A stretch of 64,000 nt of DNA, taken from the NCBI GenBank assembly GCA_036012755.1, contig DASCPX010000027.1:160001-224000 (forward strand), in the 5' to 3' direction. A program made the translations under genes and the position numbers. Below, one piece after another: positions 3,956-59,818 of this stretch. Source of the stretch: Myxococcota bacterium. Its GTDB lineage: Bacteria; Myxococcota_A; UBA796; CAJQPC01. Below the pieces are notes generated by a model. That model was not told the DNA's origin. It saw nothing but the letters and a program-made list of their open reading frames with translations, and ran no database searches. Each line of letters starts with the position of its first letter. Position 1 is the stretch's first letter.

Positions 3956-4766
3956 CATTCCCCGGGCAGAGGTCCTGCGGGCGCGCGCCCACATCATCCG
4001 GAGCATCCGCGAGTGGTTCTGGGGCAGCGGCTTCCTCGAGGTCGAGGCGCCGACGCTCGTGCGCAGTCCGGCGATGGAAGAACACCTGGAGGCCTTCCGA
4101 GTGGGCGAGCGCTTCCTCCACACCTCGCCCGAGTTCGCGCTCAAGCGCGTGCTCGCGGCTGGACTGCCGCGCATCTTCTCCCTGGGGCCCTGCTACCGAG
4201 ACGAGGAGTGGGGTCCGCTCCACGGACACGAGTTCACGATGCTGGAGTGGTACCGGGTGGGATGCGGCTACGAAGGCATCGCCAGCGACCTCGTCGGGCT
4301 GCTCGGCGCCCTGGGAATACCCGAGCCCGTCCGTGTGACGGTGCGCGAGGCCTTTGTCGCCGTTGGGGGGCGACCAGAGGACCCCATCGAGGCCCAGCGG
4401 ACCTGGGTCAACGACGTCGAGCAGCGCTTCCAGCGTCCGACGCTGGTCTTCGACTACCCGGCGGACGAAGCCGCCCTGTCCGAGCTGCGTGGTGAGCATG
4501 CCGAGCGCTTCGAGCTGTACTGGAAGGGCGTAGAGCTCGCCAACGCCTTCACCGAGTTGCGCGATCCCACCGAGCTGCTGGAGCGCTGGGCCAAGAACAA
4601 CGCTCGGCGGCGGGCGGCAGGCAGAGCCCCCCACCCCGTCGATGCCCGCCTGGTGGAAGCCGTCGCCCGCCATCCCCGCGCCGGTGGCATCGCGCTCGGG
4701 ATCGACCGGCTGGTGATGCTGCTGCTCGGCGAAGACGACATCGAGCGGGTCCGCGTGTGTGGCTGA
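3918..4766 (+). CDS. epmA: EF-P lysine aminoacylase (PoxA/GenX); true start uncertain
   Basis: FLEVEAP, LHTSPEFALKR, EFTMLEWYR, ERFELY, ELANAF, GGIALGIDRL; directly after efp. Confidence 0.9.
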   Translation: MMAASTSAASGTSIPRAEVLRARAHIIRSIREWFWGSGFLEVEAPTLVRSPAMEEHLEAFRVGERFLHTSPEFALKRVLAAGLPRIFSLGPCYRDEEWGPLHGHEFTMLEWYRVGCGYEGIASDLVGLLGALGIPEPVRVTVREAFVAVGGRPEDPIEAQRTWVNDVEQRFQRPTLVFDYPADEAALSELRGEHAERFELYWKGVELANAFTELRDPTELLERWAKNNARRRAAGRAPHPVDARLVEAVARHPRAGGIALGIDRLVMLLLGEDDIERVRVCG

Positions 4767-5389
4767 TCATCGCCTGTGGCCAGGTGCCGGAGAGCGATGG
4801 CCGGCGCTTTGTCCGCCAGCTCGGCGGCAGCCCGGAGGCCTGCGCCGCGATCGACGACGCTCGCCTGCGGGGCCACTGCCAGCTCGCCAACGGCGCTGCC
4901 TGCGAGGAGGTCGAAGTGGGCCCCTGGCAGGACGAGTGCTGGTTCAGCCTGGCCGAGCACATCGTCGATGATGACGAGGCAGTCTCGACCTGCACCAAGG
5001 CCGGCCTCTACGCAGGCGACTGCTTGACGCACCTGTTCAAGGCCCAGGTCGACGACGACCTCGCAGCCGCCGAAGCCCTGGAGATGCACTACGACGAGCT
5101 CGGGGCTGGCGACTGGGAGCCCCCTTGGGGATGGTGGTGGCGGCGGCATCACCAGCGAGCGCCGCGCCTGGACCGCAGCTGCGCCGAGCTGTCCCCGCCA
5201 CAGACGCGCCGCTGCCTGCGCGAGGCCATCCCCGCCCTTCGCCTCGCCTACCGGTCGGCCCTGTCCGAGCGCCCCCGCGAGCACTGCGGCCTCGCGCTGG
5301 AGGAACTCCGGAAAGGAAAGATCCCCTGGGTCGCGGACACAGAGCTGGACGCGGTCGTCGTCGAGGAGCTCGAGGCCGCCTGCCCCTAG
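4757..5389 (+). CDS. Cys-rich putative lipoprotein
   Basis: GTG start overlapping the epmA end; MWLIIA-C lipobox; many Cys. Confidence 0.6.
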   Translation: MWLIIACGQVPESDGRRFVRQLGGSPEACAAIDDARLRGHCQLANGAACEEVEVGPWQDECWFSLAEHIVDDDEAVSTCTKAGLYAGDCLTHLFKAQVDDDLAAAEALEMHYDELGAGDWEPPWGWWWRRHHQRAPRLDRSCAELSPPQTRRCLREAIPALRLAYRSALSERPREHCGLALEELRKGKIPWVADTELDAVVVEELEAACP

Positions 5390-7968: not shown

Positions 7969-7997
7969 AAGGCTCTCTCCAGCCAAAGTGCAGCAGA

Positions 7998-14345: not shown

Positions 14346-14768
14346 TCAGGGACAAGGGCTGCCGGTGAGCAGGAGCCCCGGGCACTCCGTCGCCGTCCGG
14401 TAGGTCTCCACGGCGCCGATGTCCGCTGTCGCCGCGTAGGTGATCGTGGCGTCGGTGGTGCTGTTCTGCACCGTGGCGCCACCCTCGACGTAGAGCATCG
14501 CGCTCGAGGCGTAGTTCCTGAGCAGCGCGCCGGTCGCGACGTAGATGGTCGCCTCCGGCCCGTTGTTGGTGAGGTCGGCCCCCGGACACGCGATCACGGC
14601 GGCCTGGTAGTCGTTGTTGAACTCGATGCCCGTGACCACCCGGGCGTCCGAGGGCACGGCGATCTCGCAGATCGCGACGCTCGTGTCCTGGCTGTCGATC
14701 GTCGTGACGTCGGTGTCGGAGCTCCACGGCTCCTTGTCTCCGCAGGCCAGCAACACCAGCGCTACCAC
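14346..14768 (-). CDS. Putative lipoprotein
   Basis: GTG overlapping the upstream stop; MVALVLLA-CGDK. Confidence 0.6.
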   Translation of the reverse strand: MVALVLLACGDKEPWSSDTDVTTIDSQDTSVAICEIAVPSDARVVTGIEFNNDYQAAVIACPGADLTNNGPEATIYVATGALLRNYASSAMLYVEGGATVQNSTTDATITYAATADIGAVETYRTATECPGLLLTGSPCP

Positions 14769-16190: not shown

Positions 16191-19160
16191 CTACTCCTCG
16201 TCCGTCGGGTCGACGGGTGTGTTCAGCATGAAGTCCGGGATGCCCGGCGGCGTCCAGCCGTCTCCGTCGATGTCCACGAAGATCGGGTTCGTGATGGCGA
16301 AGGGCGTCACCGGGTAGACCGTCGGATGCTCCGGGGTCTCGGACAAGAGAGCGCCCACGGCATCGACGCTGGAGAGCGCCTCGGTCACGACGTCCTGGAG
16401 CTGCACCGGCGCGTAGTCCACCGGGGTGAACAGCGGCTCCATGCTCTCTGAGCCTGTCACGATGAGCACGTACCAGCTGTCTTGCTCGGGCAGGTCGACG
16501 TAGGTGTCGACCATTCGCACGACACCCTCGTCGAGCTCGGTCCACTCCTGGACGAGCTCGCCGTTTCGGTAGAGTTCCACGCGGTCGACGCTCATCCAGC
16601 TCGGCGCCTGGATCTCGATGTCGATCTCGACGTCACCCTCGACCACGACCTCGTCGCCGACGATGGCGTCCCCGACGCCGAAGCGCACGAAGGGGCCGTA
16701 GCTGGTGACGACGTGGCCGCTGCGGATGTTCTCGCTGATCTCGATGGGGTCGACCCAGCCCGGGTCGTCGGCGGAGCTCAGGACGTAGTTGCGCGGGCAT
16801 CCGGACTCGGTCGAGGTCGTCCCGTGGGTGTCGGAGTTCCCGACCGCCGTGAAGCGATAGCCGAGGTTGAGCAGGCTGAACCAGTCGTCGACCTGGCCGT
16901 GGAGGCCGTAGCCCAGCGTGTAGGTGCCCTCGTCGAGATGCTGCTGCTCCTCGAGGGTGCGCGCGAGGATCTCGAGGTGGCTGACGTCCTCGCCCGCGGC
17001 GATGCGATCGAGCTCGTCCTGGGTGGGGGTGCGGATGAAGTCGTAGCGCTTGCCGTTGAGGAGCTCGATGGCGTCGAAGTCCATGCTGAAGTTGCTCGAC
17101 GCCAGGAGCAGGTTCGTGAGCGCCAGCAGCGATGTCTCGACGAGCGGATCGTCGATGTCGCCGCCGTAGGGCGAGTAGCCGTACTGGTCGAAGTAGCCGA
17201 GGATGCCGTCCCGAGGGTGAGCGACGACCGTGACGGGGTCGATGTCCTCGACGCCGAGCTCGCGCAGATCGTCGAGCATCTCGTCCGGGGTCGCGTCGGT
17301 CCAGTCGAAGGCTCCGCCGGCGAGGGCGAGGTGGTCGTGGCCGATCGGGAATCCGAGGTAGTGGCCGGCCTCGACGGTCGTGACCTCCACTCCGGGGACC
17401 GAGGAGATCCACGGAGTCATGCCCAGGTCCTCGATGACGGGCCGGAAGTCGCTGACGAAGTCGTGATCGCTGGTGACGAGGAACTCGACGTGCTCCGAGG
17501 CCATGGTGGCCACCCGGCCCTCTGGCGAGACCCCCGAGTCGTGGGAGGGGTTGCTGTGCACGTGCAGATCAGCGCTGATCCAGCCCGTCGTGGCGACGCT
17601 GCGCAGGACCTGGAGCTCGAGGTCCACCGGTCGCGTCGCGCTCACCGAGATGCGCTGCTGGTCGATCTCGTACTCGGGACCGCGCGTGGCGTAGACGACG
17701 TAGTCGCCAGGGGGAAGGGACAGGGAGGTCGCGCCGAAGGGGTTGAAGACCACCGCCTCGGGCATGCCGCCGATGTACGAGTCGCCCAACACGGGGTCGC
17801 GCACGAGGGGCTCGCCGTCGTCGCGGTGGACCGTGATCTTGCTGGGCACGAGCAGCCCGTCCTCGTCGACCACGCTGACGTCGAGGTGCCCGGCGCGGGG
17901 AGCGACCAGGGTCAGACCCTCGACGCTGCGGCCCTCTACGACATCGACCGGGACGCGGGGCCCCGTGCCGGCGCCCCCATCGTGTACGACCAGATCGTAG
18001 GCACCTGGCGGCAGGGTGCCGCCGAAGCTCCCATCCGGGTGGTGATCCTCCCACCCCACGTCGCTCTCCCACTGAGAGAACGGAGCGTCCTCGCCTCGCA
18101 CGTAGACGAGCACATCGACGCCGCTGAGGGACTCGAGGCTTCCCTCTTCCACGACGAAGCCCTCGACCCGACCGCGCGGGGTGCCCCGAGCCTCGAGGAT
18201 CCCGTCGAGCACGCTGCCGACGTCGCCTTTGCCGACGAAGAACATGCGCTCGTAGGTGAACGCGCTGCCCGCCGGGAAGCGTTCCTCCGGGGGCAGCGTG
18301 CCCTCCAGTCCGGCGCCGAAGGTGGCTGTCTGACTGGACGTGAACAGCGGCACGTAGACAGGGCCATCCGCCATCGCCAGGCCGTAGCTGATGCCGTCTG
18401 CGGTGCCTGCGACGAAGTCGAGCTCGAAGGGCTCGAGGAAGGTGTTCTGACCATTGGCGGCGGCGTCCTGGACCGCGCCGTTCTCGTCGAAGCCGATGGT
18501 GGGGGCGAAGACGTTCATGTCGCCGCCCTGGAGGTAGAAGTCACCGAAGGAGAGCCCGGTCTCGATCGCGTACTCCAACAGCGGCAGATCAGGGGTGGCC
18601 CCGAGCTCCACGGCGTCGTCCGGGTACTGGTCCCACTCGGCGAAGTACGCCGTGGTCCGGATGGTCACCCAGGGCTGGCCTGGCTCCACGATGTAGTCGG
18701 TGGCGATGCTGAAGTCCGGAGCCTCGATGATGGCCCAGAGCCCCTTCAGGAGCTTCAGGAAGGGCTCCTGCGGCGCCATCACGCGGACGACCGCGGCGCC
18801 TCCGTCCGAGCCGTCGCTCAGGATCTCGACGGTCCCCTCTCCCTCCATCGCGTACATGACGTTCATGTTGACGGTCGGGAAGAGCTCCGCGAGGCGGTCG
18901 TTGCCGAAGCCCGAGCCCGTCCCTCCAGATGCGCGGTTCAGGTCCGCGTCGATGAGGCTTCCCCCGAAGAGCGATGGCCCCATGGATGCACCGGTCTGCG
19001 TGATCGCGACCCGGATGCGGTCGTTCTCGAGCAGGATGTCCCCCGGCCTGGCGAGCGCCTTTGGCCCACCGATGGTGTCCGAGAGGTCCTCGATCAGCGT
19101 TGCCGATGCGTAGGGCTGAGGGGGTGTTTCACAGGACAGCAGGAGGGCGAGAGGCGTCAT
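16191..19160 (-). CDS. CehA/McbA-family PHP metallohydrolase, putative lipoprotein
   Basis: MTPLALLLS-C; ADLHVHS..SHDS, TSDHD, GVEVT, AHPR, GNSDTH, TNPIFVD. Confidence 0.8.
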   Translation of the reverse strand: MTPLALLLSCETPPQPYASATLIEDLSDTIGGPKALARPGDILLENDRIRVAITQTGASMGPSLFGGSLIDADLNRASGGTGSGFGNDRLAELFPTVNMNVMYAMEGEGTVEILSDGSDGGAAVVRVMAPQEPFLKLLKGLWAIIEAPDFSIATDYIVEPGQPWVTIRTTAYFAEWDQYPDDAVELGATPDLPLLEYAIETGLSFGDFYLQGGDMNVFAPTIGFDENGAVQDAAANGQNTFLEPFELDFVAGTADGISYGLAMADGPVYVPLFTSSQTATFGAGLEGTLPPEERFPAGSAFTYERMFFVGKGDVGSVLDGILEARGTPRGRVEGFVVEEGSLESLSGVDVLVYVRGEDAPFSQWESDVGWEDHHPDGSFGGTLPPGAYDLVVHDGGAGTGPRVPVDVVEGRSVEGLTLVAPRAGHLDVSVVDEDGLLVPSKITVHRDDGEPLVRDPVLGDSYIGGMPEAVVFNPFGATSLSLPPGDYVVYATRGPEYEIDQQRISVSATRPVDLELQVLRSVATTGWISADLHVHSNPSHDSGVSPEGRVATMASEHVEFLVTSDHDFVSDFRPVIEDLGMTPWISSVPGVEVTTVEAGHYLGFPIGHDHLALAGGAFDWTDATPDEMLDDLRELGVEDIDPVTVVAHPRDGILGYFDQYGYSPYGGDIDDPLVETSLLALTNLLLASSNFSMDFDAIELLNGKRYDFIRTPTQDELDRIAAGEDVSHLEILARTLEEQQHLDEGTYTLGYGLHGQVDDWFSLLNLGYRFTAVGNSDTHGTTSTESGCPRNYVLSSADDPGWVDPIEISENIRSGHVVTSYGPFVRFGVGDAIVGDEVVVEGDVEIDIEIQAPSWMSVDRVELYRNGELVQEWTELDEGVVRMVDTYVDLPEQDSWYVLIVTGSESMEPLFTPVDYAPVQLQDVVTEALSSVDAVGALLSETPEHPTVYPVTPFAITNPIFVDIDGDGWTPPGIPDFMLNTPVDPTDEE

Positions 19161-19198: not shown

Positions 19199-20233
19199 AT
19201 GCTGCTGTTGCTGCTTTCCTCGGCCGACGCCGCCGAGACCCGACCCACGGTGCTCGCCCAGGTCTGGGCCACGGCCTACGACCAGGACGAGACCGCCCAG
19301 AGCGATCCCGCTGGCTACGGGGATCCAGAGGACGACCCGGGCTTCAAGGTGCGCCGCGCACGTGTGGGCATGGACGTGGTGGACGACAGCGGCAAGCTGA
19401 GCGCAGGGGTCACCGTCGGCTACAGCGCCGGCTCGGACGCGATCGTCGCCTACGAGGGCGGCGTCGGGCTCGTCGAGGCCCGCGCCTCGGTCCAGGCTCA
19501 TGAGCTCGTGGGGGTCCACGCCGGGCTCGTCAAGGTGCCCGTTGGCCGCGAGACCCTGACCTCGTCGAGCGCCCTGCCTTTCCAGGAGCGCACCGTCGCG
19601 TCGAATCACCTGATGCCCTACCGCGAGGTCGGTGTCCTGGCGGACTTCGAGACCGCGGGGCTGCGCCTGCGCGCGGGGGCATTCAACGGAAACGGCAGCC
19701 TGCGCGGTGACGACGATGCAGGAGTCCTCGCCGCCGGCCGGGCCGAGTACACCCTGGGCGAGGGCGACCCATACCGGACCTTCGGCTCGGTGGACGGCTT
19801 CACCCTCGGAGTCGGCGGCGACTTCGTCTTCAACCCGGAGCTGGCGACCAGGACGATGGTCTACGGTGGCGACATCGTCGTGCGCGTGAAGGGCCTCACC
19901 GCAGTCGTGGAGTACCACCAGGCGAACATCACGCCGACCAACACAGAGGCCGAGGCCCCGGGCGTCCTGGCGGCGACGAAGAGGAGCGGTGGCCACGCCC
20001 AGGTCGGCTACACCATCGCGGATCGGTGGGAGCCCGTCGCGCGCTTCGAGGTCTTCGACGAGGACGCCTCGGAGTCCAACAACGGCGACCTCGCCCACGG
20101 CACCTTCGGCCTGACGGCACACCTCATGGACGACCACCTTCGGCTCGGCGGCGGCTACGTGATGCGCCGCGAGACCGGTGGCCGCACTGTGCCGAACGAC
20201 ACGGTCCGGCTCTGGTCCCAGGTGGCATTCTGA
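19199..20233 (+). CDS. Outer-membrane porin (OprO/OprP-like)
   Basis: GFKVRRARVG, KVPVGRETLTSS..LPFQERT, GAFNGNG; C-terminal Phe. Confidence 0.7.
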   Translation: MLLLLLSSADAAETRPTVLAQVWATAYDQDETAQSDPAGYGDPEDDPGFKVRRARVGMDVVDDSGKLSAGVTVGYSAGSDAIVAYEGGVGLVEARASVQAHELVGVHAGLVKVPVGRETLTSSSALPFQERTVASNHLMPYREVGVLADFETAGLRLRAGAFNGNGSLRGDDDAGVLAAGRAEYTLGEGDPYRTFGSVDGFTLGVGGDFVFNPELATRTMVYGGDIVVRVKGLTAVVEYHQANITPTNTEAEAPGVLAATKRSGGHAQVGYTIADRWEPVARFEVFDEDASESNNGDLAHGTFGLTAHLMDDHLRLGGGYVMRRETGGRTVPNDTVRLWSQVAF

Positions 20234-22802: not shown

Positions 22803-24520
22803 TCGAGGTCCAGCGCGAACACGGCGTCGAGACCCTCTCCTTCGAGGAGTTCGAGAGGCAGGTCCGACGTGGGGACATCCCATCCGAGACGCTCGTCCGG
22901 ATGGAGGTGCTCACCGGCAAGGACTTCAAGCCGGTCGGCGAGCTCGAGCTCTACCAGACACTGGCCGATCCAGAGGACCTCGCCTACGAGCGGCGGCTCC
23001 GCAACGACCCGCCCATCGTGACCGCCCTGTTGGTCGGCGTGCAACTGCGCATCTACCTCTGGAGCAAGGCGCCGGGAGCCGGCGACTGGCTCCTCGATCA
23101 CGCCACCAACTGGGCCCCGGCCGTGTTGGAGTCCGGCGAGGTCTACAGGCTCCTGTCATACGGCGGGCTCCACATGAGCCTCACGCACGCGGCCTTGAAC
23201 ATGCTGTTCCTCGCCTACGCCGGCTGGAACCTCGAGCGCGCCATGGGCCGCCGCAACCTCCTGACCGTGTTCTTCTTCTCGGTCTTCGTCGGCGGGCTGA
23301 TGTCCATGTTCTTGAGCCCGGGACGTCCTTCACTCGGGGCGAGCGGTGGCGACTTCGGGCTCATCGCTGCGGCCGTCGTCTTCGGCTGGAAGCACGAAGA
23401 CCGCCTCCCAGCCTCCGCCCGCAAGTACTTCGGTTGGGCCATCCTCCCCTACCTGGTGTACCCCCTGTGCCTGGGGCTCCTGTCGTCGACCGTCGACAAC
23501 TGGGGCCACCTGGGCGGACTGCTCGGTGGTGCCGCGACGGCGACCTGGCTGCAGCCTGAGGGCTTCAGCCGCTACGCCTCCGCCAACCGCATCGTGCGAC
23601 GGGTAGTGGTGCTGGTGAGCGCGCTGGTCCTGGCCGGGCTCTTCATCTGGGGACCGCGACTGGTCAAGCTCGAGCATCGGAGCGCGCCGAGCGGGCTGGC
23701 CCTGGGTGTTCCCCTCGGCTGGCACGAGGGCTGGGCCTTCACCGAGGATCGCGGGTGGACCTCGCCGACCGGGGCCACGACCCTGGTGGCGACGACCAAG
23801 ACCTACCGGCGTCCCCTCTCACCGGACGAGGCTGTCGAGGCCCTCGTCGAGCAGGTCGAGGCTGGGGGTGATGTGCAGCGTCACGACGTGCGCGCCTTGG
23901 AGGTCGACGGCTGGCCGGCCAGGGAGGTCGAGCTGGACTTCGATCTCGGCGGGGAGCCCCAGGTCATGCATGCCCTGGTCGTCGTGGAGGGCCCCACGGT
24001 GCATCGGGTCCACCTCCACGGCAGCCAGGAGCGGGCTCGCAGATCGAGGCAGCTCGCCGAGCACGTCTTCTCCCTGGTCGAGGTCCAGGACCCCCAGGTC
24101 CTCGTCGCGGCGCGCGAGAAGGCAGCGCGCAACCCGCGCTCGTGGAAGGCGAACCTCCAGGTCGCCAGACTGGAAGCGCTCTACGGCTACCCCGAGGCCT
24201 CGTGGGAGGCCTACCGGCGGGCCTATCGCGACGCCTCCGAGCGCAAGCCGGAGATCGCGGCGGGCATCCTCGATCTGTACGCCGACTACGGCGAGGGACC
24301 GGAGCCCGAGCGCATCGACCAGCTGATCGAAGCCCACTGGCGACATCCATCGGTCGCGGCCACGGGGGCTGACGCCCTCGATCGAATGGGGCGAGACGCC
24401 GATGCCATCGCGCTGTTGGACGAGGCATGGGTGGCGACCGGCGGAGACTTCGTGGTGCGGCGCGCGCGGGAGTCCCGCGGCCTGTCGTCGGATCCGCCCG
24501 GTCCTATTCCTGGTCCGTGA
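22799..24520 (+). CDS. Rhomboid intramembrane serine protease with extra N- and C-terminal domains
   Basis: ATGA overlap with queG; H..LNM, GASGG (Ser), NWGHLGG (His). Confidence 0.85.
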   Translation: MIEVQREHGVETLSFEEFERQVRRGDIPSETLVRMEVLTGKDFKPVGELELYQTLADPEDLAYERRLRNDPPIVTALLVGVQLRIYLWSKAPGAGDWLLDHATNWAPAVLESGEVYRLLSYGGLHMSLTHAALNMLFLAYAGWNLERAMGRRNLLTVFFFSVFVGGLMSMFLSPGRPSLGASGGDFGLIAAAVVFGWKHEDRLPASARKYFGWAILPYLVYPLCLGLLSSTVDNWGHLGGLLGGAATATWLQPEGFSRYASANRIVRRVVVLVSALVLAGLFIWGPRLVKLEHRSAPSGLALGVPLGWHEGWAFTEDRGWTSPTGATTLVATTKTYRRPLSPDEAVEALVEQVEAGGDVQRHDVRALEVDGWPAREVELDFDLGGEPQVMHALVVVEGPTVHRVHLHGSQERARRSRQLAEHVFSLVEVQDPQVLVAAREKAARNPRSWKANLQVARLEALYGYPEASWEAYRRAYRDASERKPEIAAGILDLYADYGEGPEPERIDQLIEAHWRHPSVAATGADALDRMGRDADAIALLDEAWVATGGDFVVRRARESRGLSSDPPGPIPGP

Positions 24521-25007
24521 CCAGGCGCCCGCTCAGCGTGCCGTCAACGGTCAGCACGCCAGAGTCCCCGGCGGAGGTCTGCCAGGTGTCGACGGCGCTG
24601 TAGATGCCGCTGAGCTCGTCGCCCTGCCAGATGATGTTCGCGTTCCAGGCGACATCATGGTCCGAGAACTGGGCCCCGGTGTCACCGAGCGTGGTGTTGT
24701 CGCTCGTCCAGTCCGTGCCGACCGTCTTGAGCGTGAAGGCGTTGCAGTTGTCGGAGTCCGGGACGTACTTCGCGGAGAACTCCTGCCCCTCGATCAGGAT
24801 GCGGAAGGTGGAGTTGGCTCCGACGTAGGTCAACTGCCACTCTCGCTCCCCGTTGTAGAAGGGCGCGTAGGTCGGCATCACGCTGTCTTCGGGGTTGTCG
24901 TGGTTGCTGACCGACGAGAACACCGAGTAGGTACCGGCGATCCGGGATGCATCGGTGCACTCGTTCGAGCAAGCCAGAAGGCCCAGGAGCACAGTCATCG
25001 CTCTCAC
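24504..25007 (-). CDS. Putative lipoprotein (start 25007 or 24998)
   Basis: (MRA)MTVLLGLLA-C; beta-rich mature region. Confidence 0.65.
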   Translation of the reverse strand: MRAMTVLLGLLACSNECTDASRIAGTYSVFSSVSNHDNPEDSVMPTYAPFYNGEREWQLTYVGANSTFRILIEGQEFSAKYVPDSDNCNAFTLKTVGTDWTSDNTTLGDTGAQFSDHDVAWNANIIWQGDELSGIYSAVDTWQTSAGDSGVLTVDGTLSGRLVTDQE

Positions 25008-41107: not shown

Positions 41108-41714
41108 GGCGGACCTCCAGGTTCGAGCCACCCGTCTGCTCGAGCGCGAGGGCCAGGTCCTCGTCTCCGAGCCAATCGAGCGGGTTCGTCGGGTTCAGTC
41201 GAAGCCCGAATGTCTGGTGGAAGAGCTTGCGGAAGCGGTCGTTCTCCCGATCGGAGAGGTTGGCGAAGAGCACCGTGCCTTCGGCCATGTTCCAGCACAC
41301 CTCTGTGACGCGCACTCGGGGGATCGCGCGCTTCAGCCACTCGAACTCGAGGCGCTCCTTCAGCTCCGCCTTCACGCCGCGCGGGGCTACCTTCTGACCG
41401 CTCTCGAGGCACCACTCGCTCACCGCGCGGTCGAGGTGCGCGCGGAAGAGCGCGGCCGGGAGGACCTTCTTGTCGACCCGCAGCCCAAACAGCGCGTAGT
41501 GGCCAAAGAGCCAGTGGTTCAGGTCGTCGAAGTCGGAATAGAGCAGGTTCTGGGGACGCACCCACCCCCAGGTCTCCTCCTTCGACGTCTTCGAGCCCGG
41601 ATCGCGAAACCCGTAGGCGTTGAGCGCCTCGACGTAGGTGATGCGGAAGCCCTCGGGCGTCTCGCCCTGGGCCGTGTACCGGCGCGCCGTCAGCGCGCCT
41701 CTGAGGATGCCCAT
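41100..41714 (-). CDS. RdgC-like protein, N-terminal half
   Basis: ETWGWV, LRVDKKVLPAA, KAELKE..LKRAIPR resemble the RdgC N-terminal region. Confidence 0.7.
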   Translation of the reverse strand: MGILRGALTARRYTAQGETPEGFRITYVEALNAYGFRDPGSKTSKEETWGWVRPQNLLYSDFDDLNHWLFGHYALFGLRVDKKVLPAALFRAHLDRAVSEWCLESGQKVAPRGVKAELKERLEFEWLKRAIPRVRVTEVCWNMAEGTVLFANLSDRENDRFRKLFHQTFGLRLNPTNPLDWLGDEDLALALEQTGGSNLEVRRG

Positions 41715-43774: not shown

Positions 43775-44599
43775 TTAGAGCGCATCCCGGGAGATGAGGT
43801 GAACGCGGCCGAGGTCCGGGCCGTGTGGCAATCCGATCGCCAGCGTCTCCCGGTCTCCGGCGAGCACGATGGGGCGCCCGATGCTGGAACGATCGAGGGC
43901 CAGGACCGGTCCTTCGCCGAGCGGTACGAGGCGGAGCCGACCGGGCGCCTCGTCGATGTTGTAGGTCCCCGCCGCGTAGCCACCGCCGATGGCACGGCCG
44001 AGGTGGTCGCCTGGACGCCCGGCGTGCTCGCTGGACCCTCGCACCAGGCCAGCGCCCCCATCCAGCCCCACCTGCGGATCGCTCCACCAGATCCCCTCGG
44101 CCCAGTGCACTACCTGCCCGCCCTCGCCGGCTTCCCCGACCGCATCTCCGCTCTCTGCGTCGAGGACGACACAGCTCTCCGAGCACTCCAGGACGAGCAG
44201 TGTGTCCCCGATGCTCACCGCGCGGGGATCCTCGAAGGCGAAGTCGCCGTACGAGGAGGCGACGCCGCCACCGTGGGCGACGGCCCACTCACAGCCCGGG
44301 CCGAAGTCAGCGGCATGAGCTGTCGACTGGAAGTCGCGGACCCGACCGGTCGGGCCGTAGAGGCCGTCGGGCTCGATCCACTGAAGCGTCGTGTCCACGC
44401 AGACCGCGAGCGGGTCACGGGCGGCGTAGCAGTCGCTCCCGTCACAGACGGCGTCGTCCGAGCCCACGACGATGCGCTCTCCGTCGACTAGCAGGACACG
44501 CCCGTAGCCGAGGGCTCCTTCGAGGGTCCGCGTCGCGACCTCCCAGGGCACGGCGACCTCGTCCTGGAGGAGCGGGGCACAGCCGAGCAGGAGGATCAC
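43775..44599 (-). CDS. FG-GAP/beta-propeller-like lipoprotein
   Basis: GTGA overlap; MILLLG-C; GDHLGRAI, LAIGLP..GRVHL. Confidence 0.6.
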   Translation of the reverse strand: MILLLGCAPLLQDEVAVPWEVATRTLEGALGYGRVLLVDGERIVVGSDDAVCDGSDCYAARDPLAVCVDTTLQWIEPDGLYGPTGRVRDFQSTAHAADFGPGCEWAVAHGGGVASSYGDFAFEDPRAVSIGDTLLVLECSESCVVLDAESGDAVGEAGEGGQVVHWAEGIWWSDPQVGLDGGAGLVRGSSEHAGRPGDHLGRAIGGGYAAGTYNIDEAPGRLRLVPLGEGPVLALDRSSIGRPIVLAGDRETLAIGLPHGPDLGRVHLISRDAL

Positions 44600-46130: not shown

Positions 46131-48218
46131 TCAGTAACCGGCTGTGGCCTCCAGGATCGACTCCAGCGGCACCTTCAGCTCGCCGGGCTGGGTCAGTCCC
46201 AGCTCCGCGAGGCCGCGCGCGAGCTCGTACTGATCAGCGTTGTAGGCGTCGACAGCGACGTTGTACAGCGCCACGCGGGTCGCGGGGTCCTCTGGCGCCA
46301 GCCCGAAGGCGTTCCGTGCATGCAGAGCGCGGTCCTCCAGCTCCCCCGGCTGCTCGGCGAGTTCGGCGAGGCAGCGCGCCGCGACGTCCGGGAGTCCAGC
46401 CGTCGCGGCGAGCTCTGCGGCATCTCGAAGCCGCCGTTGGTTGTTCGAGTGGCCAAGGCGCACCCCGACCATCGCTGTGGCGGCTGTGGCCCGAGCCTCG
46501 AGCTCCAGGTCGTCGAGCCGCTGGGCTTCGGCGATGACCTCTGACCAGAACACCCAGGACTTCTCGGCAGGCAGACCCACCGCGATGTTGTAGGCGCACC
46601 AGGCATAGGCCCTCTCGGCCTGCCTCGCATAGTCCATCTCGCCGATGCGCTTCAGCGCTGAGCTGCTCTCGTGGAAGTGGGTCCGCGCACCCCCGAAGTC
46701 CCCGCGGTCATAAGCCTCCAGCCCCTGGTCGTAGGCCATGAGAGCGGCGACGAGAGTCCTGTGGTGTTCCAGGGCTCCAGCGACGCCCGCACCCACGGCG
46801 AGGGTCGCTGCGTCCTCGCTGGCGCCGAGCAGGATCAAGGCCTGCGCAGCGTTCCTCCGCGCCGTCTCGACCACGTGGTCCCCGTGCCCTGTCGCCTCGG
46901 CCACCTCCGCTGCACGCGCGAAGGCCTCCAGGGCGCCCGCGAGGTCCTCTGCCTCGACGCGGCCCAGGGCGTAGGCGAGCTCGACGTGCGCGGGCCCGAG
47001 GTCATCGCCAGCCTGCGAGAAGAGCGCCAGCGCCTGGCTGAACTCGCGATCGGCGGAGTGGGCAGAGTCCACTCGCACCATCGCCGTAGCGACACGTGCG
47101 GCCTCGGCGTAGTGCCCCGCGCCGACGCGGTAGTCGAGCGCCGCGGTGAGCGCGGCCCGCGCCCCGTCCACGTCGCCACGGCGGGCAGCGATCCCACCCT
47201 CGAGCTCCCTCGCGGCGGCGTTGGCCGGCGGCAGGTCCATGCCAGCGAGCTCCTTCACGGCGGCGGCGTGCCGCTCCTCGGCGATCTCGACGCGTCCGAG
47301 CCGAAGGGCGAGGCGCCCCAGCTCGATGCCGACCGCCACGGCCTCTGCTTCGAAGCCCGCCGACCGATGGGTCGCTTCGGCCTCTGCGAGGAAGGTGAGC
47401 GCCAGGTCGTCGCGGCCGGCGAGGTGATGCGCCATGCCCAGACCGAAGAGCACCTGACCCGTCTGCCAGGACAGCCCTGAGACTCGGGCCGCGGACAGGG
47501 TGTCGGTGAGGGTCTTTGCGGCGGCGTCCGGCCGGCCGCTCGCTCGCTGGATCGCACCCTCGGCGAGGCCGACGTCCACGAGCTCACGGGGGGTATCAGC
47601 CCTCGAGCGCATCGCCTCCAGCTCGGCGTGAGCCGCGCCGAGGGCTCCGCGGCGCAGGTGCGCACCGACTGCATCCAGCCCGCTGCCCCCTGTCTCCTCT
47701 CGAGTGGAGGACAGCCTGGACCGGAGCGCGTCGGCCTCGTCGTCGGCGACGCCCTCGAGCTCGCCGAGGCCATCGAGAGCGGCGCTGGCCCTGGACCCGG
47801 CGCCGGCGTCGATGTCCAGAGCGATGAGGTTCAGCCTCGCCATCACCGCCGTGTCGCCTCCACCTGTGGCCAGCTGCTCGAAGATGCGGCGTGCCTTGGC
47901 TGCTTCTCCCCGCTCCCGAAGGACCAGGGCCAGGACATTTCGCCCCTCTGGGGAGGTCACCCCGTGCAGCGCGGTCTCGGCCGCACGCAGGTCTCCTGCC
48001 TCGTAGAGCAAGGCCCCTTGGACCACCCGCGCCTGCTCCCCTGCCCCACCCTCCGCGAGGCTGCCGAACAGGGAGGCTGCCTCGATGACGCGACCCTCTG
48101 CCATGGCGCTGTAGGCATCCTCGACGAGGGCCTGGTCGTCCTCGTCGAGGCGCATCTCCGCGGACGATGGGATGACGACCGGGGTCGCCAGCGCCAATCC
48201 GAGCAGGGCGGCGATCAA
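46131..48218 (-). CDS. Exported TPR-repeat protein
   Basis: TTGA overlap with the pcp stop gives MIAALLGLALA-TP; Ala-rich TPR helices. Confidence 0.7.
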   Translation of the reverse strand: MIAALLGLALATPVVIPSSAEMRLDEDDQALVEDAYSAMAEGRVIEAASLFGSLAEGGAGEQARVVQGALLYEAGDLRAAETALHGVTSPEGRNVLALVLRERGEAAKARRIFEQLATGGGDTAVMARLNLIALDIDAGAGSRASAALDGLGELEGVADDEADALRSRLSSTREETGGSGLDAVGAHLRRGALGAAHAELEAMRSRADTPRELVDVGLAEGAIQRASGRPDAAAKTLTDTLSAARVSGLSWQTGQVLFGLGMAHHLAGRDDLALTFLAEAEATHRSAGFEAEAVAVGIELGRLALRLGRVEIAEERHAAAVKELAGMDLPPANAAARELEGGIAARRGDVDGARAALTAALDYRVGAGHYAEAARVATAMVRVDSAHSADREFSQALALFSQAGDDLGPAHVELAYALGRVEAEDLAGALEAFARAAEVAEATGHGDHVVETARRNAAQALILLGASEDAATLAVGAGVAGALEHHRTLVAALMAYDQGLEAYDRGDFGGARTHFHESSSALKRIGEMDYARQAERAYAWCAYNIAVGLPAEKSWVFWSEVIAEAQRLDDLELEARATAATAMVGVRLGHSNNQRRLRDAAELAATAGLPDVAARCLAELAEQPGELEDRALHARNAFGLAPEDPATRVALYNVAVDAYNADQYELARGLAELGLTQPGELKVPLESILEATAGY

Positions 48219-51227: not shown

Positions 51228-52934
51228 ATGCGCAGACTGAACGTCGTCCTCATCCTCGTCGCCTGCATCCTGCTGATGTGGATCCTCCGCCCCACCTCAG
51301 CGCTGCGGACCGGCGCGGATGGCGATGCCCCAGAGGCCACCCATGCAAGCGGCGTCGTGGTCTTCGATCTCATCGACGACACACCCCTGTCCGACATCGA
51401 GGCGCTCGAGCGGGATCTCGGCATCGACCTCGAGTACAGCTCCGATGTCAGCGAAGACGAGGCCCTCCTCCGCGCGGAGGTCGACGACGTCGCGGCGATC
51501 GTCGCTGCAGCGCAGGGCAATGCCCTCGTCGAGGTCGTCGAGCCGGTCGTGGAGTTCGAGGTCAGCGGGTACCCGAACGACCCGATGTGGGACCAGCAGT
51601 GGAACATGGAGATGATCGACACCCCCGCGGGTTGGCGCGCTGGCGGTGGCAAGGGCGTGAAGGTCGCGGTCATCGACACCGGCGTGACCTGGGTCGAGGA
51701 TCTCGAGGGCATCCCGATGGGTCCGGGCAAGAGCTTCGTGCCCTTCGTCAAGAAGCCGATCGACGATCACGGCCACGGCACGCACGTCGCGGGCACGATC
51801 GCCCAGGTGACGAACAACGGAAAGGGCGTCGCCGGAGTGGCCCCCAACGTCACGATCATGCCGTACAAGGCGCTGTCCAAGCACGGCTTCGGCTCCAGCG
51901 ACTGGATCGCCGCTGCGATCGACCACGCCGTCGACAACGGGGCGGATGTCATCAACATGAGCCTCGGCGGATCCCACTCGGGCGTCCTCCACAACGCCGC
52001 CGAGAAGGCCGCCGATGCTGGCGTCGTCGTGGTCATCGCTGCCGGAAACTCCGGAAGGAAGGGCGTTGGCTGCCCCGCGCACGGTGACAACGTGATCGGC
52101 GTCTCCGCGGTCGGCCCGGACGACTCCAAGGCCTACTACAGCTCTTGGGGAAAGGGCGTCGAGATCGCCGCCCCCGGAGGTGACACGCGCAAGAGCGGCG
52201 GAGGCATCCTCCAGGACACCATCGACGGCAGCGGCGGCCACAAGTACGCCGCCTTCCAGGGGACGTCGATGGCGACGCCACATGTCGCTGGCGCGGCTGC
52301 CGTCCTCCTCGGCATGGGTCTCGACGCCGAGAGCACCACCGACGTGCTCTTCAAGACCGCCGAGGACAAAGGCGACGAGGGCTTCGACGAGATCTACGGC
52401 CACGGGCGTCTCGACGTCGGCGCCGCCGTCCGAAGGGTCCTGGTGCGCAGCAACGGGCTGAAGTTCGTTCTCGGGGGCCTGATGGCCATCGCGCTCGTCA
52501 TGTTGTCCCGGTTCCGCGGCTCGCAGTCCATTCCGATGGTCGGTGCGGCGGCGCTGTCGGCAGGAGGGCTCTTCTTCCTTCCCCTGCTCCCGATTCCGCC
52601 CAACCCTGTGGTCGAGGTCCTCAGCCGCGACCTGTTGAGCCTCCCCGCCGTCGTAGTCGGCGCGGACTGGGTGCACTTCCCCCTGTGGGCGTCCGCGCTC
52701 CTGCCCGCCGTGCTCGCATTCCTGCTCGGTCCGAGCAAGCGCTTCGGCCCAATCGTCGCGGGCATCTGCGTCGGATTCGGCACCAGCCTGCTCTACGGCG
52801 CAGCCTCTGGCACCCTCGACGTGTGGTGGCTGGGCATGGGCCTGGACAAGGTCTGGCTGTCGCTCAACGGGACCGCATGCCTGCTCGCAGCGATGGCGGT
52901 CGTGGGCCTCCACAAGCTGGAGCGGCCGTCTTGA
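51228..52934 (+). CDS. S8 subtilase with C-terminal multi-TM region
   Basis: VAVIDTG, HGHGTHVAG, AAGN, GTSMATPHVAG. Confidence 0.93.
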   Translation: MRRLNVVLILVACILLMWILRPTSALRTGADGDAPEATHASGVVVFDLIDDTPLSDIEALERDLGIDLEYSSDVSEDEALLRAEVDDVAAIVAAAQGNALVEVVEPVVEFEVSGYPNDPMWDQQWNMEMIDTPAGWRAGGGKGVKVAVIDTGVTWVEDLEGIPMGPGKSFVPFVKKPIDDHGHGTHVAGTIAQVTNNGKGVAGVAPNVTIMPYKALSKHGFGSSDWIAAAIDHAVDNGADVINMSLGGSHSGVLHNAAEKAADAGVVVVIAAGNSGRKGVGCPAHGDNVIGVSAVGPDDSKAYYSSWGKGVEIAAPGGDTRKSGGGILQDTIDGSGGHKYAAFQGTSMATPHVAGAAAVLLGMGLDAESTTDVLFKTAEDKGDEGFDEIYGHGRLDVGAAVRRVLVRSNGLKFVLGGLMAIALVMLSRFRGSQSIPMVGAAALSAGGLFFLPLLPIPPNPVVEVLSRDLLSLPAVVVGADWVHFPLWASALLPAVLAFLLGPSKRFGPIVAGICVGFGTSLLYGAASGTLDVWWLGMGLDKVWLSLNGTACLLAAMAVVGLHKLERPS

Positions 52935-53149: not shown

Positions 53150-54289
53150 TCAGTCGCCCCGCCAGTTCGGCGATGAGCACTCCACGACACCGTCGACGGG
53201 CTCGCACTCGTAGACGCCACGAGCGGCGACGAAGACCGAGCCCTTCAGCTTCAAGGTGCCGTCGAAGCCCGTGACCTGGCATGGGCCCGCCTTCACCTCG
53301 CGGGCGTAGCAGGTCGGGTCGCACACCAGGGGCGCCGCGTCGCGACAGGTGACCGTCGGACTCGCGAGCCCCTTCATCACGAACTTCACCTTGTCGACGG
53401 TGTGGGTCGGGAGGACCTCCGTCGTGTCCCCATGCTCGCGGATGACGATGACCTCGCTCGGAACCTCGACGGTCTCCTTCACGACGAGCAGCATCGGCTC
53501 GCCCCCCTCCCCCAGCGTGTCCTTGAACTGGATGCCCGTGGACAGCGCCAGGTCATGATCATGGTGACCAGCCTGTGATGGGTTCTGGCGACTGCCGGTG
53601 TCGCGCGGGACCGCGATGACCAGGTAGCGATAGAGCTCGGCGGGGGTGATGACGTTGTCACGGGTGGTGTCGGCGCCGCCGGTGATCGCGTCGATGAAGT
53701 GCTTGGCGAAGACCTCGCTGAAGCCGGTCTCCCCCAGCGACGTCGCGGACAGGTGGTAGGTGTTCGGGACATCCGGCCAGCTGCTGGCGACCGGTCCGAC
53801 GAGCGCGAGATCTCCAAGGGAGGCGCCGTGCGCGGCATCGGTCACCAGCGCGTAGGAGCCCGCCTGAAGCCACTCGGGGAGGCTCTCTCCCAGGGCCGAC
53901 ACCGACAGGGAGGTGCCCGGCAGGTCGTCCGCCGAGGTGTCGTAGGTCAGCAGATAGGGGTCGTCGAAGTCCGCCCCCACGCCCTGGCCGACGAAGTAGA
54001 CGAGCACGGTGTCCCGGTAGGTGACCAGCGGCGCCAACTCCTCGCGGAAGAGGCGCTCGAGCCGCTCCTTGGTGGCCTCCGAGTCCGTGATGAGGCGGAC
54101 GTCGTCGTAGTTGGCCTCCTCGCGCAGGGCCAGGGCCACCCGGGCGGCGTCACCATGCGCAGCCGGCAGCATCAGCTCGGCCGGGAGGGACTCGTAGGTG
54201 GAGATGCCGACGACGACGGCGTAGCGTCTCGCGACGGGCTCCTCCGGGGGTTCCTGGGCCAGGGCCGCCAGCGAGAGCGCCAGGATCAC
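53150..54289 (-). CDS. Exported caspase-like (C14) protein lacking the catalytic dyad
   Basis: RYAVVVGISTY, DSEATKE, YFVGQG (His to Gln), TDAAHG (Cys to Ala), GGADT..DNVIT..EL. Confidence 0.8.
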   Translation of the reverse strand: MILALSLAALAQEPPEEPVARRYAVVVGISTYESLPAELMLPAAHGDAARVALALREEANYDDVRLITDSEATKERLERLFREELAPLVTYRDTVLVYFVGQGVGADFDDPYLLTYDTSADDLPGTSLSVSALGESLPEWLQAGSYALVTDAAHGASLGDLALVGPVASSWPDVPNTYHLSATSLGETGFSEVFAKHFIDAITGGADTTRDNVITPAELYRYLVIAVPRDTGSRQNPSQAGHHDHDLALSTGIQFKDTLGEGGEPMLLVVKETVEVPSEVIVIREHGDTTEVLPTHTVDKVKFVMKGLASPTVTCRDAAPLVCDPTCYAREVKAGPCQVTGFDGTLKLKGSVFVAARGVYECEPVDGVVECSSPNWRGD

Positions 54290-56564: not shown

Positions 56565-57422
56565 CTACTCGAAGGGCAGTCTGGACGATCGTGCACTCAG
56601 ATGGCCGCTGTTGGTAGCGATCCCCAACTCGGTGCCTGGCTCCCAGGCCGCCGGTCTCAACACGGCGAGCGCGAGTGTGCGACCATCGACGGTTGCCTCG
56701 GACGAGACGACGCCGAGCTGGTCCTCTCCCAGGAGGACCGCACCGCCAGTGCTCCCCTCCCCGTCCACGACGAGACCGGTCAACCGCTTGTTGACCTTGC
56801 CCATCGTGTCCATCCGGTTGATGACCTCCTGCCCGACGTAGCAGCCCTTGTCGAAGGCGCAGATCCGATCGCGCAGACCCATCTCGTGGACAAAGGCACG
56901 CTCGCCGAAGTCCACCGGCCAACGGGGCAGGCCCGCCTGGATGCGGAGACCCTCGAGGACCTCGACGGATGTGTCCGGACCGAGACTGACCCCGATCAGG
57001 TCGAAGCCGGAAAGGCCGCAGCGATCCGTGGCCGCGATCCAGCCTCCACCGTGGGCAACTATGCCATCCGGGACGGGCAGCCCGTGGGCCTCGAGGATGG
57101 CAGCGCTGTCCTCGCCCACCACGTGCACGATCCCGTGGCTGGAGGTGAGGTCCTCCAGCTCGATGGGGTCCATGATGATGTACATGTCCAGGCGCCGAGC
57201 GACCTCCTCGACATCCGCGCCGTCGATCACCAGGAGCGCCTGGTCGGGTGCGAGGCACCAGGCGTCGAGCAGCGCGAGCAGGCGACCCTTGCTGTCCGCC
57301 ATGCCCGAGTGCCCGCCCTGTCCCGGCCGCCGGAAGGCGTTCGTCAGCATGCTGTTGCAGAAGCGCGGTGTGTCGCTTCCAGTCAGCCGCAAAACACCCG
57401 GGTTCCCGAGGTCGATGATCAC
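56565..57422 (-). CDS. ygfZ: YgfZ/GcvT folate-binding protein
   Basis: KGCYVGQEV signature; GTGA overlap start (longest ORF starts at 57440). Confidence 0.88.
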   Translation of the reverse strand: MIIDLGNPGVLRLTGSDTPRFCNSMLTNAFRRPGQGGHSGMADSKGRLLALLDAWCLAPDQALLVIDGADVEEVARRLDMYIIMDPIELEDLTSSHGIVHVVGEDSAAILEAHGLPVPDGIVAHGGGWIAATDRCGLSGFDLIGVSLGPDTSVEVLEGLRIQAGLPRWPVDFGERAFVHEMGLRDRICAFDKGCYVGQEVINRMDTMGKVNKRLTGLVVDGEGSTGGAVLLGEDQLGVVSSEATVDGRTLALAVLRPAAWEPGTELGIATNSGHLSARSSRLPFE

Positions 57423-58180
57423 GGGCTCTCCATCGTCCACACCGAGCCCTCGGCCTGGTCCGCGACGTAGAGGAGACCACCCAGGACCTCGATGGATCCT
57501 GGCCGCCCAGGACCGCTGCCGAGGACCCTGCCTCCAACCTCCCGGACCCCCATGAGGCCAGACGCCAAGAGCGTGCCGGTGCTCCCGTCCAGGGCGTGGG
57601 CCTCTGTGGCGTCGAGCTCGTCGCCATCGACGAACACACCGCTGTCCGTGCCCGTGACGAGCTCTCCGTCGAAGACGGTCACAGACAGAACCGCGATGTC
57701 CTTTTCGTAGACCGTCGCCGAGCTGCCGTCCGGCTCGACGGTCCAGACCACCTCTGCCACGGGGTCTGCGACGAGGAGTCGACCATCCAGCCAGGTGATG
57801 TCAGCGGGCCGGCGCATCGGCAGGCCGGCATCTCCGGCCTCGGCCAGGACCGTGACGTTCCGTCCACCTTCGAAGACGCCCACCCAGCCCGCAATGCTGT
57901 TGTCCGTGCCCGTCAGGTAGACGGTGCCGTCGTGGACGAGGACGCCCAGCAGCTGACCGAGGTCGTGGCCGACCTCTTCGACCTCGTCGTCCTCCGGAGA
58001 CCACGACCACAGCGAGCCTCCGAACTGCGCTGTGGAGAGCAGCCGGTCACCATCGACAGCGAGGTCCCAGGCGAGGTTGTCCACCGCCCACGCGACAGCC
58101 ATCGAGGCGCCTGGAGCGGAGGGGTCACCCGTGCCGTATCGGGTGGAGCCGTCCGTGCAGGCGAGGAGGAGCGTCAGCAC
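57419..58180 (-). CDS. Beta-propeller (NHL/SMP-30-like) lipoprotein
   Basis: MLTLLLA-C; RPADITW..LLVAD, LLYVADQ. Confidence 0.65.
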   Translation of the reverse strand: MLTLLLACTDGSTRYGTGDPSAPGASMAVAWAVDNLAWDLAVDGDRLLSTAQFGGSLWSWSPEDDEVEEVGHDLGQLLGVLVHDGTVYLTGTDNSIAGWVGVFEGGRNVTVLAEAGDAGLPMRRPADITWLDGRLLVADPVAEVVWTVEPDGSSATVYEKDIAVLSVTVFDGELVTGTDSGVFVDGDELDATEAHALDGSTGTLLASGLMGVREVGGRVLGSGPGRPGSIEVLGGLLYVADQAEGSVWTMESP

Positions 58181-58190
58181 GCTCCGGATT

Positions 58191-58894: not shown

Positions 58895-58930
58895 AGCACG
58901 CGCTCATTAACCAACGGCTACAGTGCGGCA

Positions 58931-59818
58931 ATGTGGTTGCTGCTCGCATGCAACGGCGATGGGGACAGTCCCATCCATCGGGAGAGCCTGCCGGTGGACG
59001 ACACCGCCCTCGTGGAGACAGGCGAACCGCCCGAGCGCTTCGTCGGCGAGGGCGGCGGCTACGGCCATGCGCTCGCCAGCGACGGTGACCGGGTCTTCGT
59101 CTCCGCCCCATGGATCGGATCCGTGTACGAGCTCGACGGCACCTTGCACACGCTCGGCCCGGTCGGCTCCGGGTATGCGATGGCCTACGACGACGATCTG
59201 CTCATGGGGAACCCCTTGGAGGGCACGCTCTCAGACGGCACGGAGGGCGAATACGGGGCGGTGGTGCGTCGCGACGGCGGCTGGCTGCTCTCCAGGGGTC
59301 TCGGCGCCGAGTTTCCGTCCGGTCCGGTCGCGCTCCCGGAGAGACCCGCCGACCTGGCCTTGTGGAACGGCCAACGGGTCGCGGGCATGGCCCACGGCAC
59401 ACATGCCCTGTCCATCGAGGAGGAGCTCGTCGAGAGACTCGAGCCGGGCGACGGCGCTGGCTATGCCCTCTGCGTCGCTGACGTGGACAGCGACGGCGTC
59501 GACGAACTCGTGGTGGGCGCGCCGAACGCCGGTGTCGTCTACCTCGTCGAAGATGAGCTCGAGACCGCCGAGTCGGTGGTCGGCGAGGGGCGCTTCGGGC
59601 ACTCCCTGGCCTGCGCGGAGGGCCTCCTCGTGGTCGGCGCACCCATGAGCGGCGCCGAACTCGCCGGCGAGGTCGTCATCTACGAAGACCTCGACCCGGT
59701 GGCTGTCGTCGAAGGCGAAGTCGGGGACACCCTAGGGGCGAGCGTGCTGCTGTCCGGAGACCGTATCTTCGCGGGCGCGCCAGGTAGCACCGAGGGAGCC
59801 GTCCTGCGGCTTCGCTGA
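58931..59818 (+). CDS. FG-GAP (integrin-alpha-like) repeat lipoprotein
   Basis: MWLLLA-C; YGHALA, DVDSDGVDELVVGAP, FGHSLA, VVGAP. Confidence 0.8.
   Translation: MWLLLACNGDGDSPIHRESLPVDDTALVETGEPPERFVGEGGGYGHALASDGDRVFVSAPWIGSVYELDGTLHTLGPVGSGYAMAYDDDLLMGNPLEGTLSDGTEGEYGAVVRRDGGWLLSRGLGAEFPSGPVALPERPADLALWNGQRVAGMAHGTHALSIEEELVERLEPGDGAGYALCVADVDSDGVDELVVGAPNAGVVYLVEDELETAESVVGEGRFGHSLACAEGLLVVGAPMSGAELAGEVVIYEDLDPVAVVEGEVGDTLGASVLLSGDRIFAGAPGSTEGAVLRLR

Follow-up and report, generated by a model that had tools for sequence, protein, structure and literature searches.

The window analysed here, a 64,000-nt stretch of DNA (DASCPX010000027.1:160,001-224,000), comes from a Myxococcota genome, G000, of 6.73 Mb (68% GC, 250 contigs, 95.95% complete), and contains genes whose predicted exported products start with a few hydrophobic residues and no Lys or Arg. 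An earlier sequence-only reading had listed eleven such starts and had suggested for them a non-canonical route of export and lipidation. Our analysis of the whole genome and its relatives indicates that these short leaders are common in G000 and that they are, quite probably, Sec signal peptides eroded to their core, exported by SecYEG and processed by Lgt, LspA and Lnt or by LepB. We favor eroded Sec signals over a new route because the Cys of the lipoprotein leaders appears homologous behind long and short leaders alike, and because SecA, the signal recognition particle (SRP), LepB, Lgt, LspA, Lnt and Lol are present.

For the genome-wide count, the genes of G000 were called with a purpose-written codon-usage caller (5877 in total), and the analysis used the 5400 that scored at least 20 and did not run off a contig edge. 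The short-lipoprotein pattern was Met, hydrophobic residues, [AGS] and Cys, with the Cys at positions 6-14, so that absence of charge is partly built into it. In its strict form the pattern matched 680 of the 5400 genes vs. 5 of 4382 internal-start controls, which extends to the genome what had been noticed in the window. A slightly looser form matched 702 genes, with the Cys most often at position 8, and was used for further statistics; canonical lipoprotein leaders numbered 75-88, according to the filter. With the charge filter relaxed, short leaders with Lys or Arg amounted to 19, those without to 702. Counts of Cys made free of any pattern gave 182, 283, 221 and 166 at positions 7, 8, 9 and 10 against a background of 72, and no peak at positions 16-25 among the same 5400 genes. 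For 1257 genes whose start was set solely by overlap with the upstream stop, Cys at positions 7-9 was found 72, 80 and 50 times vs. 17. The peak persisted where no in-frame start lies further upstream (n = 2580), also when CTG and ATT/ATC/ATA were counted as starts (n = 1459), and the profile at internal start codons was flat. The Cys peak near the N-termini is not due to chance.

A second class of leaders resembles the signals of signal peptidase (SPase) I. The short SPase-I-type pattern was found in 356 of the 5400 genes (control, 54 of 5052), and leaders or anchors with a basic n-region in 347 (control, 51). In the 356 proteins Ala makes up 28-30% of residues at positions 9-11, charged residues follow, and an A-X-A-type site pattern is present. 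Short-leader genes are spread over 87 contigs and account for 3-20% of the genes on the 39 contigs that have at least 50. An origin by a genomic island or transfer was rejected on the basis of this wide spread and of the G+C content at third codon positions (GC3), which is 0.906 for short-leader genes vs. 0.898.

Longer upstream starts adding a basic n-region, which the sequence-only reading had raised as an objection to itself, are very unlikely to account for the pattern: 516 of the 702 genes have no ATG, GTG or TTG able to yield a leader of 14-40 residues, 351 have none even when CTG, ATT, ATC and ATA are allowed, and 135 are forced to be short by an in-frame stop. A Shine-Dalgarno sequence, a -10 box or a stop overlap accompanies 70% of the 702 short starts vs. 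51% of the starts of other genes; the corresponding values are 22% for 250 upstream ATG/GTG/TTG codons, 18% for 415 upstream CTG/ATT/ATC/ATA codons and 14% for 5300 internal starts. Positional peaks precede the short starts, GGAG at -12 to -9 and TANNNT at -12. Of the short-leader genes, 17% have the TANNNT element about 12 nt ahead of their start, vs. 7% of other genes and less than 1% of controls, a position that points to leaderless or nearly leaderless mRNAs in the lineage.

In composition the short leaders are more hydrophobic than the canonical ones of the same genome (Kyte-Doolittle value 2.99 vs. 2.23, a difference partly set by the pattern) and richer in Leu (55% vs. 35%), which stands at -3 in 439 and at -2 in 411 of the 702. 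The pattern itself demands Ala, Gly or Ser at -1; counted without that filter, the -1 residue is one of these in 782 of 1018 cases in which the first Cys falls at positions 6-12. The mature parts resemble those of canonical lipoproteins: Asp plus Glu reach 0.191 and Lys plus Arg 0.052, vs. 0.197 and 0.053 for canonical lipoproteins and 0.142 and 0.096 for other genes, and 694 of the 702 proteins have no later transmembrane (TM) segment. With the canonical Sec/SPase II system (E. coli Lpp type; Lgt-Lsp-Lnt-Lol) the short leaders share the invariant Cys, the Ala/Gly/Ser at -1 and the presence of the pathway genes, and homologs and paralogs with canonical leaders place the Cys at the same site. 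They differ in the position of this Cys (6-14, vs. approximately 15-25 in the canonical set of G000), in the missing basic n-region, in the frequent Leu at -2 and in being, as a helix, too short for the membrane. The PROSITE rule places the lipoprotein Cys at about 15-35, and a helix of 6-9 residues cannot span a bilayer. Likewise, the SPase-I-type leaders resemble canonical Sec/SPase I signals (n-h-c, A-X-A) in having a hydrophobic core followed by small residues and in heading outer-membrane and periplasmic families, and differ in their length of approximately 9-15 residues and in lacking an n-region. Judged by these features, both classes would function like Sec/SPase II and Sec/SPase I signals, yet they fail the n-region and length features by which such signals are defined.

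We compared 121 genomes of the order to which G000 belongs (hereafter the order) with 130 genomes outside it. The proxy for distribution was the DNA motif M-h-x-h-h-h-A-C, which covers one leader length and ATG starts only, so that a low motif count is not proof of absence. G000 has 68 matches, 46 of them at called starts. Matches per genome range from 0 to 134 over the order, clustered by genus, and do not exceed 6 in any of the 130 genomes outside. The view of the sequence-only reading that the trait belongs to a lineage and concerns envelope proteins was borne out, the motif being largely confined to the order and BamA, LolA and TolC-type proteins carrying such leaders. Gene-level counts in relatives, which rest on DNA samples of 12-100 kb per genome, gave pooled short leaders in 33 of 432 genes for motif-rich genomes, 11 of 166 for middle, 10 of 507 for motif-poor and 5 of 380 for outgroup genomes; the short SPase-I pattern did not separate the groups in these samples (2.4-3.2%). 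In a FastTree phylogeny built on SecA and Ffh of 30 genomes, without G141, the motif-rich genomes form three separate groups among motif-poor ones, which fits repeated gain and repeated loss alike. Seven records titled Enterobacterales or Klebsiella (L107, L112, L113, L117, L122, L125 and L126) have a SecA 63-69% identical to that of G000, as in adjacent Myxococcota metagenome-assembled genomes, and their titles are probably wrong.

The homology of the Cys is best seen for the 989-AA predicted lipoprotein encoded at 16191..19160 (-) in the window, which starts with MTPLALLLS-C (Cys 10) and whose database homologs are named CehA/McbA-family metallohydrolase. Among the best 119 of its 415 homologs, [AGS]C occurs within the first 50 residues in 112; 57 of the 119 leaders are short and uncharged, 10 short and basic, 39 long and basic and 6 long without Lys or Arg, and the remaining 7 proteins have no early [AGS]C. 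A common mature sequence follows the Cys behind short and long leaders alike. Judging from this set, the leaders form a continuum and the Cys is homologous to the canonical lipobox Cys. Clustering of the 702 proteins of G000 gave 511 clusters, of which 20 also contain paralogs with canonical leaders.

Envelope families chosen by Pfam, not by leader, and then read by eye at their N-termini gave a similar result. Lys and Arg are missing ahead of the hydrophobic stretch in 6/6 Omp85, 3/5 TolC-type, 3/8 TonB-receptor, 13/19 OmpA-domain and 2/2 LolA proteins, together 27 of 40 called genes (of 21 OmpA-domain matches, 2 fell where no gene had been called). The BamA of G000, MIHLLLAFWIALA, starts on the lolD stop and has a 13-residue leader without Lys or Arg. 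For BamA we compared 30 loci from motif-rich, middle and motif-poor genomes, one truncated locus being left out. Leaders from motif-rich genomes (13-19 residues) lack Lys and Arg in 7 of 8 cases, those from motif-poor genomes keep them in 13 of 15 (for three of which the DNA context alone was read), and the 7 middle genomes include both kinds. Two other genes of G000 combine distinct parts: a 1504-residue gene (G000:C43:80059-84573) combines an N-terminus that by eye resembles an RND transporter with two C-terminal TolC-type (OEP) domains, and a 1013-residue gene (G000:C127:59222-62263) joins a C-terminal TonB-receptor barrel to an apparent membrane-protein domain, not a signal peptide, at its start. 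BamD is normally a lipoprotein; BamD-like PF13525 loci (L315-L337; G000:C149:39926-40537) have, in each of the 22 genomes of the order and class that were compared, an SPase-I-type leader and no lipobox Cys, and the protein of G211, a single outgroup genome of another class, has a lipobox.

The machinery for export and lipidation looks ordinary. Family searches of G000 identified one SecY, one SecA, Ffh, SRP RNA and three S26 peptidases, as well as five Lgt, two LspA, Lnt and two LolA; FtsY, YidC, SecD, SecE, LolCDE-type genes and two deformylases were recognised by motif only. Loss of SRP was considered and rejected, as Ffh, FtsY and SRP RNA are present in G000 and Ffh was found in 113 of 121 order genomes, including 61/61 of good quality. 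In alignments of Ffh and of SecA, no column distinguishes 14 motif-rich from 12 motif-poor genomes. The copy number of lgt (1-6) and lspA (1-3), in tables read by eye, has no relation to the trait and was rejected as its cause. A tandem lspA-lspA-lgt-lgt array lies at G000:C59:99943-102645 (L001-L005), flanked by several short-leader lipoprotein genes. The proposal of a separate route, or of a modified SecA, SRP, Lgt or LspA, thus found no support: SecA is single-copy and ordinary, SRP is present without a diagnostic Ffh or SecA column, and lgt and lspA copy numbers do not follow the trait. Of the five genes that the sequence-only reading had pointed to, inspection of secA, ffh, lgt and lspA yielded nothing linked to the trait, and that of secY one change, in TM5.

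Compared with E. coli SecY, the G000 protein has Ala instead of Ile187, which we take to be one of six pore-ring isoleucines, and Thr instead of Phe192; I82, I86, I191, I278 and I408 are kept. Position 187 is Ala or Ser in 21/21 order sequences vs. Ile, Met or Val in 30/30 outgroup sequences that could be extracted out of 32. A set of 90 order genomes, matched with a pattern leaving 187 free and including the 21 (31 order genomes gave no match), has Ala in 52 and Ser in 38, and Thr at 192 in 80. A second secY with outgroup-type residues (Ile at 187) in G058 (C138:1765-1808), an order genome with 8% contamination, is probably on a foreign contig. As in prl alleles of SecY/Sec61, a bulky hydrophobic residue is lost from the central TM5 face beside Ile191; the change described here differs in being natural and order-wide, and its prl phenotype is putative. 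Pore-ring substitutions are reported to give prl export of defective signals (PMC3164448), and E. coli SecY I187M, F192S and F192L to increase translocation by log2 0.47, 0.28 and 1.31 (PMC13537251). The ring residues named in the portions of these two sources that we drew on are I86, I191, I278 and I408, not 187, and the corresponding portions of PMC11470409 and PMC5427846 do not name Ile187 as a ring residue. It is plausible that the Ile187 change is permissive; that it was the enabling cause of the short leaders is the weakest step of our argument and a tentative one. A scan of all SecY columns flagged position 193 post hoc, and the position was then tested on 69 genomes outside the first set. 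The median number of motif matches per Mb was 2.24 with Ala193 (n = 47) vs. 0.60 with Cys, Gly, Ser or Thr (n = 22); overall, none of 30 genomes without Ala193 exceeds 11 matches, and 13 of 60 with it have 5 or fewer. Because Ala193 is also found in E. coli and is usual in the outgroup, and because related genomes are not independent, this association is a lead only.

Starts, homology of the lipobox Cys, envelope-family substrates, machinery content and SecY residues were read from the DNA, and they suggest a model in which export, lipidation, cleavage sites and topology are predicted. The signals would have lost their basic n-region and some of the h-region, keeping a Leu-rich stretch and a processing site, which is either L-x-[AGS]-C for Lgt, LspA and Lnt (Cys at 7-10 in most) or, for LepB, A-x-A, with cleavage near 9-13. 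Precursors would pass SecYEG with SecA and/or SRP, and raised hydrophobicity would probably make up for the missing charge. Since a helix of 6-9 residues is too short for the bilayer, the leader would occupy either the lateral gate or the outer leaflet and present its Cys on the periplasmic side. Lgt and LspA are described as working on the Cys at the periplasmic interface (PMC8048626), so that the leader may need only to reach the outer leaflet. By easing proofreading, the order-wide TM5 change (Ile187 to Ala/Ser, Phe192 mostly to Thr) may have let several sub-lineages drift short. In its fullest form, which we put forward as rather doubtful, the model says that an order-wide proofreading-relaxed SecY (Ile187 Ala/Ser, Phe192 Thr, Ala193 kept) let at least three sub-lineages shrink most signals to 6-9 uncharged, never membrane-spanning and possibly N-formylated residues, which would be lipidated and cleaved from the outer leaflet by standard Lgt and LspA. 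SRP binding can block deformylation (PMC5454389); as a speculation, such a block would leave the short leaders wholly uncharged.

Several observations weigh against this interpretation. Upstream in-frame ATG, GTG or TTG codons exist for 186 of the 702 short-leader genes and, 17-118 codons off, for 6 of the 11 window starts, and about 6 of the 57 short uncharged homologs of the 16191..19160 product look like mis-called starts. The jump of GC3 from 0.60 to 0.92 at short starts is partly circular, the caller being based on codon scores, and carries little weight. The strict lipobox [LV][ASTVI][GAS]C is present in 149 of 702 short leaders vs. 40 of 75 canonical ones, a low share that follows mainly from the Leu at -2. 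Compensation by an acidic early mature region was rejected (mean charge over 18 residues, -2.9 vs. -3.3), and BamD-like proteins go against the trend, with Lys or Arg kept in 8 of 11 motif-rich genomes. For SecY, 20 of 147 diverse representatives have Ala or Ser at 187 (4 of these with a small residue at 192), so the change is uncommon but not unique, and it also occurs in order genomes without any motif match and is thus not sufficient for the trait. The effects reported for positions 187 and 192 are modest beside the log2 2.45 of I191S, and the measured rows that we found in the supplement of PMC13537251 do not include I187A or I187S. Some of these points would be expected if the short leaders were an annotation artefact and the real starts, including CTG and ATT, lay further upstream and gave a normal n-region. 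Our caller does make such errors: of 15 short calls in samples from motif-poor and outgroup genomes, 9 were false, with a basic alternative start upstream. Yet this explanation is very unlikely for the set as a whole, given the starts forced by in-frame stops, the 351 genes without any candidate start, start signals near the background rate at the alternatives, the Cys peak that remains in stop-overlap starts, and the short N-termini that database gene calls give for homologs too. It is still harder to believe that the leaders are cytoplasmic-side membrane anchors or uncleaved N-termini. That notion draws on the shortness of the helix and on cleavage being only predicted, but leaders of this kind stand at the front of BamA, other Omp85 proteins, TolC-type proteins, TonB receptors, a porin and LolA, and each of the two leader classes retains its own -3/-1 pattern, that of SPase II or that of SPase I.

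Handling of the short leaders by a non-canonical route of their own or by a specialised paralog (an additional Lgt or LspA, SRP or SecA in altered form, or some unknown factor) would explain why the trait is patchy in the order, where something must vary between genera, and the five lgt, two tandem lspA and three S26 peptidase matches of G000 could take part in it. We consider it unlikely: copy numbers are off the trait, the two richest genomes (G112 and G119, with 134 and 130 motif matches) having one lspA and 3-4 lgt, four lspA are also reported for M. xanthus (PMC8048626), Ffh and SecA offer no diagnostic column, and leader lengths are continuous within the single family of 16191..19160 homologs. 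More room must be given to the possibility that any bacterial Sec system takes Leu-rich short leaders, less efficiently, and that they arose by drift under relaxed selection with the SecY change incidental, although we do not think it the likelier course of events. This shares the eroded-signal half of our reading and differs on the cause only. The failure of the SecY change to predict the trait inside the order and the occurrence of Ala or Ser187 in other SecY proteins are in its favor, as is the report that loss of n-region charge lowers but does not abolish export (PMC5875014). Against it stand the same source's statement that efficient export in model bacteria needs charge and a minimal h-region length, the near absence of the motif from the 130 genomes outside the order, and the short leader of the essential BamA.

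If our reading of the leaders as eroded Sec signals holds, the minimum that textbooks give for signal peptides in bacteria becomes questionable. Export and lipidation in bacteria are usually taken to require the n-h-c design and an h-region that spans the membrane. Approximately 13% of the genes of one genome (702/5400), and in addition those for the essential BamA and LolA, seem to manage with no n-region and with leaders of approximately 7-14 residues, about half the usual length. We found no published description of short uncharged leaders in the open-access papers searched. Large SignalP-based secretomes of Myxococcota are given in PMC11495043, and the portions of that paper used here do not mention short leaders; our counts suggest that rule-based predictors would miss much of the secretome of the order. 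The material offers hundreds of natural minimal signals, matched pairs of long and short orthologs and a candidate channel change, with which one could test how short a signal may be, what its positive charge does and how SecY proofreads. The cell-free SecYEG assay described in PMC13537251 would suit such tests.

Within the window, all eleven starts listed by the sequence-only reading agreed in coordinates and residues, and its statement that they are well constrained was upheld as follows. Five have no in-frame upstream ATG, GTG or TTG (4757, 19160, 36666, 54289 and 58180), and translations upstream of the window starts are rich in Arg, Pro and Gly and add no hydrophobic core. The predicted lipoprotein at 4757..5389 (+) starts with MWLIIA-C (Cys 7) and has no Pfam family. 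For 14346..14768 (-), MVALVLLA-C (Cys 9), the start overlaps the last 7 nt of the upstream gene, and TTG/GTG codons lie 34 and 66 codons upstream. An in-frame stop lies 4 codons before the start of 16191..19160 (-), and 3 codons before that of 34690..36666 (-), a predicted lipoprotein with MFWLLLIA-C (Cys 9) and AGGAG upstream. The predicted lipoprotein with Asp/Thr repeats at 32586..33299 (+), MTLLMLLA-C (Cys 9), has an ATGA overlap with the upstream stop and GGAGGAG upstream; a GTGA overlap is found at 43775..44599 (-), MILLLG-C (Cys 7). At 57419..58180 (-), MLTLLLA-C (Cys 8), TAGAAT stands at -13. The expected -10 box was found as TACAGT at -12 before the FG-GAP repeat predicted lipoprotein at 58931..59818 (+), MWLLLA-C (Cys 7), which has an upstream GTG at 21 codons. 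One further short lipoprotein leader, MLLGLLA-C (Cys 8), forms the N-terminus of the called gene at 24504..24992 (-).

Leaders of 11 residues of the SPase-I type head three window proteins. A Porin O/P family outer-membrane protein (PF07396, E 9e-10) at 19199..20233 (+) starts with MLLLLLSSADA; GAGGTG precedes it, and its upstream alternative starts run back across the start of the divergent gene. The TPR protein at 46131..48218 (-), MIAALLGLALA, has a TTGA overlap with the upstream stop and GGAGGT upstream, and the caspase-domain protein at 53150..54289 (-), MILALSLAALA (weak PF00656 match, below cut-off), has a GTGA overlap. Normal N-termini coexist with these, as had been noticed: gamma-glutamyltranspeptidase (ggt, 26489..28171, -) has a canonical basic signal peptide and the VWA protein at 36768..38174 (+) a basic N-terminal signal or anchor of normal length. 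A subtilase at 51228..52934 (+) is a further contrast case, its lipoprotein leader being short but basic (Cys 13).

Two other loci of the window are of separate interest. A single gene at 25045-25695 (+) has a weak BMC-domain match, below cut-off, and no other microcompartment gene was recognised among the window proteins scanned. At 40598-41714 (-), an RdgC-family gene (PF04381, E 1e-10) is followed by a gene of 164 residues without a Pfam family.

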